Shown one piece after another: positions 52,007 through 52,535 of a stretch of DNA of 64,000 nucleotides. Made by a program: the position numbers and the translations under genes. The notes beneath the pieces were generated by a model. That model searched no databases. It saw only the letters and a list, made by a program, of their open reading frames with translations, and had not been told where the DNA came from. The DNA comes from Escherichia coli (GTDB lineage Bacteria; Pseudomonadota; Gammaproteobacteria; Enterobacterales; Enterobacteriaceae), in the NCBI RefSeq assembly GCF_030013595.1, contig NZ_CP122768.1. The stretch is one strand, 5' to 3'. How positions within the stretch are numbered: the first letter of the stretch is position 1; each line of letters opens with the position of its first letter.

Positions 52007-52535
52007 TTTCATTGACAGCCACATCATGATGACCGTGGCTGTTAGTTTTTGAGTATTGGTATTCTCATTTCCCTTCTTTTAGAGCTGGCTTGTTAAATGC
52101 CAGCTTGCAAATTCATCGTTCCATCACCAGTACTATATTCAAGTGAAAATTGCTATTTTTCTTAAAGCATTAAGCATAAGCCTTATTTTATAGCGAATAT
52201 TCCTAAAGGCATTAATGGATGAAAAAGGGGTTTAATAAACTTCTTTTTTAGCAATTAGTGCTATTCTTTGTTAAATATGATGATGATAATCTTCTTATTG
52301 AAAGAAACAGTTTTCTTATTAAGCAACAATAACTCATGGTTCATTTTTAAATAAAATAAGAACTATGCAATTTTTAATCTATCGATTCGAAAGTATTAGC
52401 AAATTAGCCAAATTGACACCTTCCCACCTCCAACCAACACTCAATACAGACCTCTGACAACTTAATAAGTTTCATTTTTAACGTCTGATGACTCATCTCT
52501 TTCGTGGCTGTATTGTTTGTATATGGAGCGTTTAT

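Follow-up and report, generated by a model that had tools for sequence, protein, structure and literature searches.

In the 64,000-nt stretch of Escherichia coli DNA analysed here (the window), the genes lsrR and lsrK are followed by a large autotransporter gene and hipBA, and lsrK is separated from the autotransporter gene by an AT-rich spacer of more than half a kilobase. The locus raises the question of whether this spacer is a long untranslated leader of the autotransporter mRNA, as the first-pass annotation had proposed, or DNA that acts without being transcribed as a whole. The evidence below favours the second answer, at a probability of roughly 0.7: the stretch is probably intergenic DNA that regulates a horizontally acquired gene for an AIDA-type autotransporter, and not a long 5' UTR.

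The spacer and the start of the autotransporter gene

52007 to 52535, no strand assigned: lsrK-autotransporter intergenic spacer, orthologue of the K-12 yneO-lsrK spacer (1598087-1598616)

The spacer fills the 529 nt between lsrK (50414-52006, with its TAG stop codon at 52004-52006) and the next gene, which begins at 52536. Its GC content is 32.1%, compared with 48.8% for the whole window, and in 200-nt windows across it the GC content falls to 25-35%. An equal AT-richness is reached by just 0.16% of sliding 529-nt windows, and the most AT-rich single one begins at 52041. The initial description of about 530 bp of AT-rich DNA between lsrK and the autotransporter start is therefore accurate, and the stretch is non-coding. 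The orthologous K-12 spacer (NC_000913.3, 1598087-1598616) contains no annotated gene or RNA, and a search for small protein genes in the spacers of 11 genomes yielded no conserved ORF under purifying selection. Two candidate ORFs were rejected: a 30-aa ORF at 52365-52457 is uninterrupted in 11 genomes, but its substitutions are all non-synonymous and it lacks a ribosome-binding site, and a minus-strand ORF at 52404-52496 is interrupted by a stop codon in 5/11 genomes. Classification as a repeated or mobile element was likewise rejected, the spacer being single-copy in most genomes and the partial matches being IS1/Tn3 rearrangements of the same locus. Consensus sites for IHF and CRP are absent from the spacer, and its sole CpxR-like match, at 52068-52082, has two mismatches. 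Separately, K-12 ydeK (b1510), the orthologue of the sequence from 52536 onward, is listed as 2.2-fold changed in the CpxR regulon table of an envelope-stress study.

The 3' border of the spacer depends on the start codon, for which two in-frame ATG codons compete.

52488 to 52490, plus strand: in-frame ATG heading the ORF track; ACG in 9/11 genomes, a non-conserved start
52525 to 52528, plus strand: Shine-Dalgarno sequence GGAG, 7 nt before ATG 52536
52536 to 52676, plus strand: true start codon and ESPR extended signal peptide, from a Pfam ESPR match

Translation starts at ATG 52536 and not at ATG 52488. Profile positions 1-47 of the Pfam ESPR family (PF13018, E=4e-15) align with residues 17-63 of the ORF that begins at 52488, and residue 17 is the methionine encoded at 52536. 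In each of the nine E. coli genomes checked for it, PGAP annotates the start at the position corresponding to 52536, and the K-12 yneO pseudogene (formerly ydeK and ydeU) likewise begins there. Together with the GGAG element and the ACG found in most genomes, these alignments confirm the first-pass view that 52488 is not the start and that the extended signal peptide begins at 52536. ATG 52488 is private to the lineage of the window, consisting of the window and NZ_CM149870.1, which carries two private proximal changes: ACG to ATG at 52488 and TTTAAT to TTTAAC in a candidate -10 element.

NCBIfam NF011422, the ECSE_1600 autotransporter family with an AIDA-type beta-barrel, matches the intact orthologue from end to end. 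A literature search for a name of the autotransporter found nothing useful.

Transcript boundaries and sequence conservation

52011 to 52050, plus strand: intrinsic terminator of the lsrRK operon, with arms 52011-52022 and 52035-52046, core ACAGCCAC/GUGGCUGU and a U run at 52046-52050

The hairpin and U run at the 5' end of the spacer are the lsrRK terminator. The element folds at -17.4 kcal/mol (z -4.2), none of 200 shuffles folds equally well, and a single one of its 44 columns is variable across 11 genomes.

This conservation does not extend over the whole spacer. Among the 11 phylogroup-diverse genomes sampled, all of them colinear, 63/385 columns (16.4%) are variable in the distal part (52051-52435), as against 6/100 in the last 100 nt of the spacer (Fisher p=0.006). 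Third codon positions of the adjacent gene vary at about the same rate as the distal spacer (14/100). Since the distal variation is about that of third codon positions, this part appears to be kept AT-rich but not kept in sequence. An 801-nt query comprising the spacer and both gene ends has matches in 4229/5426 complete E. coli genomes, with ~96.5% identity to most E. coli and at least 99% in only 17 genomes. A degenerate N-terminal pattern, WNCTLQVFQAC, gave one hit among 100,044 species representatives, on an E. coli-like contig, and no orthologue in another species. The 25-kb contig JARKOR010000214.1, binned as 'Candidatus Nanosynbacter', carries the lsrK-autotransporter locus with ~97% mean column identity to K-12 and the window, and is almost certainly E. 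coli sequence placed in the wrong bin.

Several promoter-like and structural elements lie between the terminator and the gene.

52083 to 52105, no strand assigned: 7-bp GC-rich inverted repeat AGCTGGC-N9-GCCAGCT (-11.7 kcal/mol, z -2.4)
52105 to 52449, no strand assigned: equivalent of K-12 promoter island 1596197_345 (U00096.2 coordinates), fast-evolving AT-rich DNA
52223 to 52249, plus strand: hairpin of A run, stem-loop and U run adjoining the marbox described below, paired in 10/10 genomes
52413 to 52460, plus strand: C-rich, G-poor tract (20 C and 3 G in 48 nt) with a perfect TTGACA at its beginning
52454 to 52482, plus strand: best sigma-70 promoter candidate, with -35 CTGACA at 52454-52459, a 17-nt spacer and -10 TTTAAC at 52477-52482
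52517 to 52552, plus strand: promoter-like TTGTAT-18-TAGAAT across the start codon, which fits K-12 start site 1598070

A strict sigma-70 scan returned no plus-strand promoter in the spacer. In our own promoter scan, the top plus-strand match was CTGACA-17-TTTAAC, with a predicted start at ~52488-52490 and hence a leader of ~47 nt. The -10 reads TTTAAT in 9/11 genomes (K-12 and 8/9 others), and TTTAAC in the window is without the key final T; the new in-frame ATG 52488 falls right at the predicted transcription start. In K-12, CTGACA-17-TTTAAT is predicted within the spacer under an RpoD-holoenzyme SELEX peak (Shimada 2014). The peak is of low resolution, so that the promoter is identified by its consensus match and its start by prediction. 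The promoter prediction proposed at first pass thus produced a plausible candidate, while the accompanying curvature prediction gave no signal above chance: AA/TT periodicity at 9.5-11.5 bp is reached by 60% of shuffles.

Experimental start sites from K-12 point to a position slightly further downstream. Among the cappable-seq sites covered here from Forrest 2022, Ettwiller 2016 and Yan 2018, none falls within K-12 1598087-1598616; the only nearby listed site is 1598070, equivalent to window position 52552 and 16 nt inside the gene. This start rises 2^6.24-fold in an hns deletion according to the listed values (Forrest 2022), and it was assigned to the K-12 minus strand by inference from the sign absent in the table. 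The missing spacer starts among these listed sites are weak evidence, because parts of the three data sets were covered and yneO is silent in laboratory K-12.

These data bear on the proposal that the whole of the ~530 nt is a transcribed leader. A true long leader would be an AT-rich RNA of 170-520 nt, made from a distal promoter (TTCATC-16-TATATT, predicted start ~52146) or by read-through from lsrK, that regulates the gene, for instance by letting Rho load at the 52413-52460 tract or by means of RNA structure. Distal promoter-like matches do exist, an RpoS SELEX peak (K-12 1596530 in old coordinates) is centred near window position 52116, and many potential start points are predicted in the promoter island. 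However, the 42 -10-like hexamers of the spacer, although above the window mean of 20 per 529 nt, show no excess over composition-matched shuffles (49.8 +/- 8.2), and promoter islands are published as giving only short oligonucleotides. RNA polymerase and H-NS binding have been reported for the K-12 island, with little or no transcript. The strong, well-conserved terminator directly after lsrK argues against read-through, and the cappable-seq lists, as far as they go, contain no start in the spacer.

A few structural signs remain on the side of such a leader. As a whole, the spacer folds slightly more stably than its shuffles (z -2.7), and all ten genomes compared can pair the hairpin at 52223-52249, which shows one double compensatory change. 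This hairpin is stable in some genomes but not in others: its energy runs from -10.5 kcal/mol in the window to -3.6 kcal/mol in K-12, which makes a function such as that of a back-up terminator doubtful. Against a structured leader stands the near absence of covariation, which contributes -1.6 of -79.6 kcal/mol in an RNAalifold consensus of 10 genomes, with 1/141 pairs compensatory. An Rfam scan at E<=1 found no family in the spacer; its one match, to a snoRNA, is a chance match within a coding region. Substitutions in the inverted repeat at 52083-52105 break a pair or turn it into a wobble, none being compensatory, and a U tract follows the repeat on neither strand. The C-rich, G-poor tract, which belongs to a region with a GC skew of -0.365 (52300-52499), resembles a Rho site and would look like a Rho loading site if transcribed; its TTGACA has no -10 partner at 15-19 nt. 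Finally, the distal part varies at a neutral rate. A regulatory leader of this length is accordingly improbable. The proposal of a full-length leader finds no support in view of the 5' terminator, the lack of spacer starts among the sites covered, the predicted ~47-nt leader, the near-neutral distal variation, the lack of Rfam matches and the scant covariation.

H-NS, the promoter island and the MarA site

The H-NS, promoter-island and MarA features of the spacer have already been published for K-12 or for the enterotoxigenic (ETEC) strain H10407, and all binding data used here come from these two strains; in the spacer, the window strain differs from K-12 by ~3%. The K-12 yneO-lsrK spacer is an H-NS SELEX site (Shimada 2014). 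The 345-bp promoter island between ydeK and lsrK, one of 78 in K-12 called with PlatProm, counts as H-NS-bound in each of the three ChIP studies compared, those of Grainger, Kahramanoglou and Oshima (Panyukov & Ozoline 2013). The island was placed on the window from U00096.2 with an offset of ~+1976, which is uncertain by a few nt.

A different picture emerges from the H-NS-bound segments listed by Forrest 2022, which cover K-12 1596932-1598081. They span the first 1.15 kb of yneO and end 5 nt past its ATG, leaving the spacer outside, and the yneO pseudogene itself is missing from the gene-level table of that study. Because the listed segments stop 5 nt inside the gene, the spacer is maybe not the seat of H-NS. 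The suggestion that the region upstream of this adhesin gene is an H-NS target is thus upheld for the K-12 orthologue by SELEX, by the three ChIP studies and by the listed hns-dependent start 1598070. The ChIP evidence is divided as to place, with the three studies binding the island and the listed Forrest 2022 segments adjoining the spacer but not covering it. The first-pass annotation had also named the combination that would speak against its reading, namely a start within about 50 nt of the ATG and no H-NS occupancy. The predicted ~47-nt leader leans towards the first, whereas H-NS is present in the region of the K-12 orthologue. In silico, only the AT-richness speaks for H-NS: a search with the high-affinity motif TCGATAAATT found one match with one mismatch, at 52376, and no enrichment in the spacer.

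The distal spacer also holds a binding site for MarA.

52247 to 52261, minus strand: marbox GCACTAATTGCTAAA, 275 nt upstream of the ATG, a site for MarA and probably also for SoxS/Rob

The same site lies under a MarA ChIP-seq peak by ETEC1580/yneO in ETEC H10407 and is shifted in gels at 0.3 uM MarA (Sharma et al. 2017). In H10407 the site occupies 1717104-1717118, again 275 nt before the autotransporter ATG, and its 15-mer is identical to that of the window. No second marbox match was found in the whole window. The natural variants GCAT and GCACC remain within the consensus. The orientation of the marbox relative to the gene is read here as 'backward', like that of the mar promoter.

Identity to a documented MarA site, consensus-preserving variants and this orientation would all suit a region under mar/sox/rob control, in which MarA, SoxS or Rob at 52247-52261 would turn the adhesin gene on or off in response to antibiotics or oxidative stress, either through a nearby promoter or by displacing H-NS. 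Yet 275 nt separate the site from the ATG and ~235 nt from the best promoter, and with 2/15 variable positions its conservation does not exceed that of the neighbouring sequence. On neither strand does an acceptable -10 occur at the spacing of class I or class II promoters, by the geometry reportedly set out by Martin et al. 1999. Transcription-factor sites that bind without regulating are common, and this one may belong to them. Regulation of yneO is not reported in Sharma et al. 2017. Control by the mar/sox/rob system is thus unlikely, though somewhat less so than a long leader.

The reading as intergenic regulatory DNA accommodates these observations in three parts. At the 5' end, the intrinsic terminator would end the lsrRK transcript. 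It would be followed by ~385 nt of ~30% GC DNA, conserved in composition over sequence and holding the high-affinity MarA site, which, by analogy with the published K-12 orthologue, may bind RNA polymerase and H-NS while being transcriptionally almost silent. The conserved proximal ~100 nt would then constitute the core promoter CTGACA-17-TTTAAT/C with its ~47-nt leader, GGAG and ATG 52536. An H-NS filament over the spacer, over the first ~1.1 kb of the gene or over both could shut this promoter together with nearby spurious promoters, and expression would then require relief of silencing. In this scheme the working start site is a predicted position, and any role of MarA is conjectural.

Gene inactivation and comparison with known systems

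The autotransporter gene of the window is interrupted. The poly-G tract at 56490-56494 inside the gene reads G5+A and is the site of a frameshift that splits it into one ORF with its end at 56558 and another with its start at 56555. Eight other genomes have the in-frame length, G6+A or G7, and the K-12 yneO pseudogene has G8. The window and K-12 frameshifts are separate +/-1 slips in the same homopolymer, independent of each other. Possible readings of the tract are a mutational hot spot, an on/off switch and, for the window alone, an error of sequencing.

Mobile elements have hit the locus repeatedly, as seen in NZ_AP027599.1 (538-1235), NZ_CP196706.1 (5288-5985) and NZ_CP007265.1 (1216-2967; all positions within the compared stretches). 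One of these three strains has an IS1 inside the spacer, another has an IS1 in place of lsrK and of most of the lsr operon as far as the spacer, and the third has a Tn3-family transposase adjoining a truncated spacer.

Such damage invites the view that the spacer is decaying, non-functional DNA, the relic of a region that once served what is now a pseudogene in the window. The frameshift, the change of the final -10 T to C in the window lineage, the IS1 and Tn3-family insertions that other strains carry at or next to the spacer and the neutral rate of distal variation would all fit this view. It is nevertheless highly improbable, in that a near-identical genome with the same spacer has an intact gene of 1806 aa, phylogroup-diverse genomes conserve both the terminator and the proximal 100 nt, and at least 80% of the 801-nt query is found in one place in 4001/5426 complete genomes.

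Silencing and the poly-G tract may also be combined in a bolder model. The MarA/SoxS/Rob site 275 nt upstream would counter-silence the H-NS filament under antibiotic or oxidative stress, and the poly-G tract would add a heritable on/off layer. We regard this model as a long shot. Neither MarA counter-silencing nor poly-G switching has been reported before for the autotransporter. If the MarA site were functional, the multiple-antibiotic-resistance regulon would be tied to adhesin expression, a modest and testable link.

For annotation, the value of the analysis lies in fixing the start codon at 52536 and in describing the spacer as a terminator plus regulatory DNA in place of a 5' UTR; the locus is now tied to what has been published for K-12 and ETEC on the binding of H-NS, RNA polymerase and MarA. 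Beyond annotation, the consequences are small. The locus offers a compact case of a foreign adhesin gene that is silenced and repeatedly inactivated, by poly-G frameshifts and by IS1/Tn3 insertions.

The closest known counterpart is the K-12 yneO (ydeK)-lsrK spacer (U00096.3, 1598087-1598616), which shares the order of lsrK, spacer, ESPR autotransporter and hipBA. At 530 nt, compared with 529 nt here, and 97% identity, it has the terminator, marbox, CTGACA -35, ribosome-binding site and ATG in common with the window. The two differ by ~20 substitutions and one 1-nt indel, by TTTAAT in K-12 versus TTTAAC here, by the extra in-frame ATG 52488 of the window and by the frameshift within the gene, which is +1 (G8) in K-12 and -1 (G5) in the window.

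Comparison with agn43 (flu) is suggested by the shared arrangement of an upstream control region before an E. coli autotransporter of the self-associating (AIDA) type. Unlike agn43, which is controlled by a Dam/OxyR phase switch, the window has no GATC site in 52007-52535, and a Dam-methylation switch of the agn43 type is excluded because the spacer is without GATC. An invertible switch of the fimS/ipuS type was rejected as well, there being no neighbouring recombinase and all 11 genomes being colinear; the best inverted repeat for inversion has 18 nt and 83% identity (52174-52191 and 52351-52368). With the promoters of the mar/sox/rob regulon, the spacer shares the matched marbox core GCAYNNWNNRYYAAA and the MarA binding documented for the identical H10407 site, but here no promoter lies at the canonical distance.

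A more general comparison is with the xenogeneic silencing of acquired adhesin and autotransporter genes. The spacer departs from it in that one thresholded ChIP-seq map, in its listed segments, puts H-NS over the 5' part of the coding sequence and leaves the spacer outside, and in that phased A-tracts give no curvature signal in the spacer. It agrees with it in placing AT-rich DNA before a gene scored as foreign, and in an orthologue that is bound by H-NS in vitro and in vivo, with start sites that, in the listed data, are de-repressed without hns.
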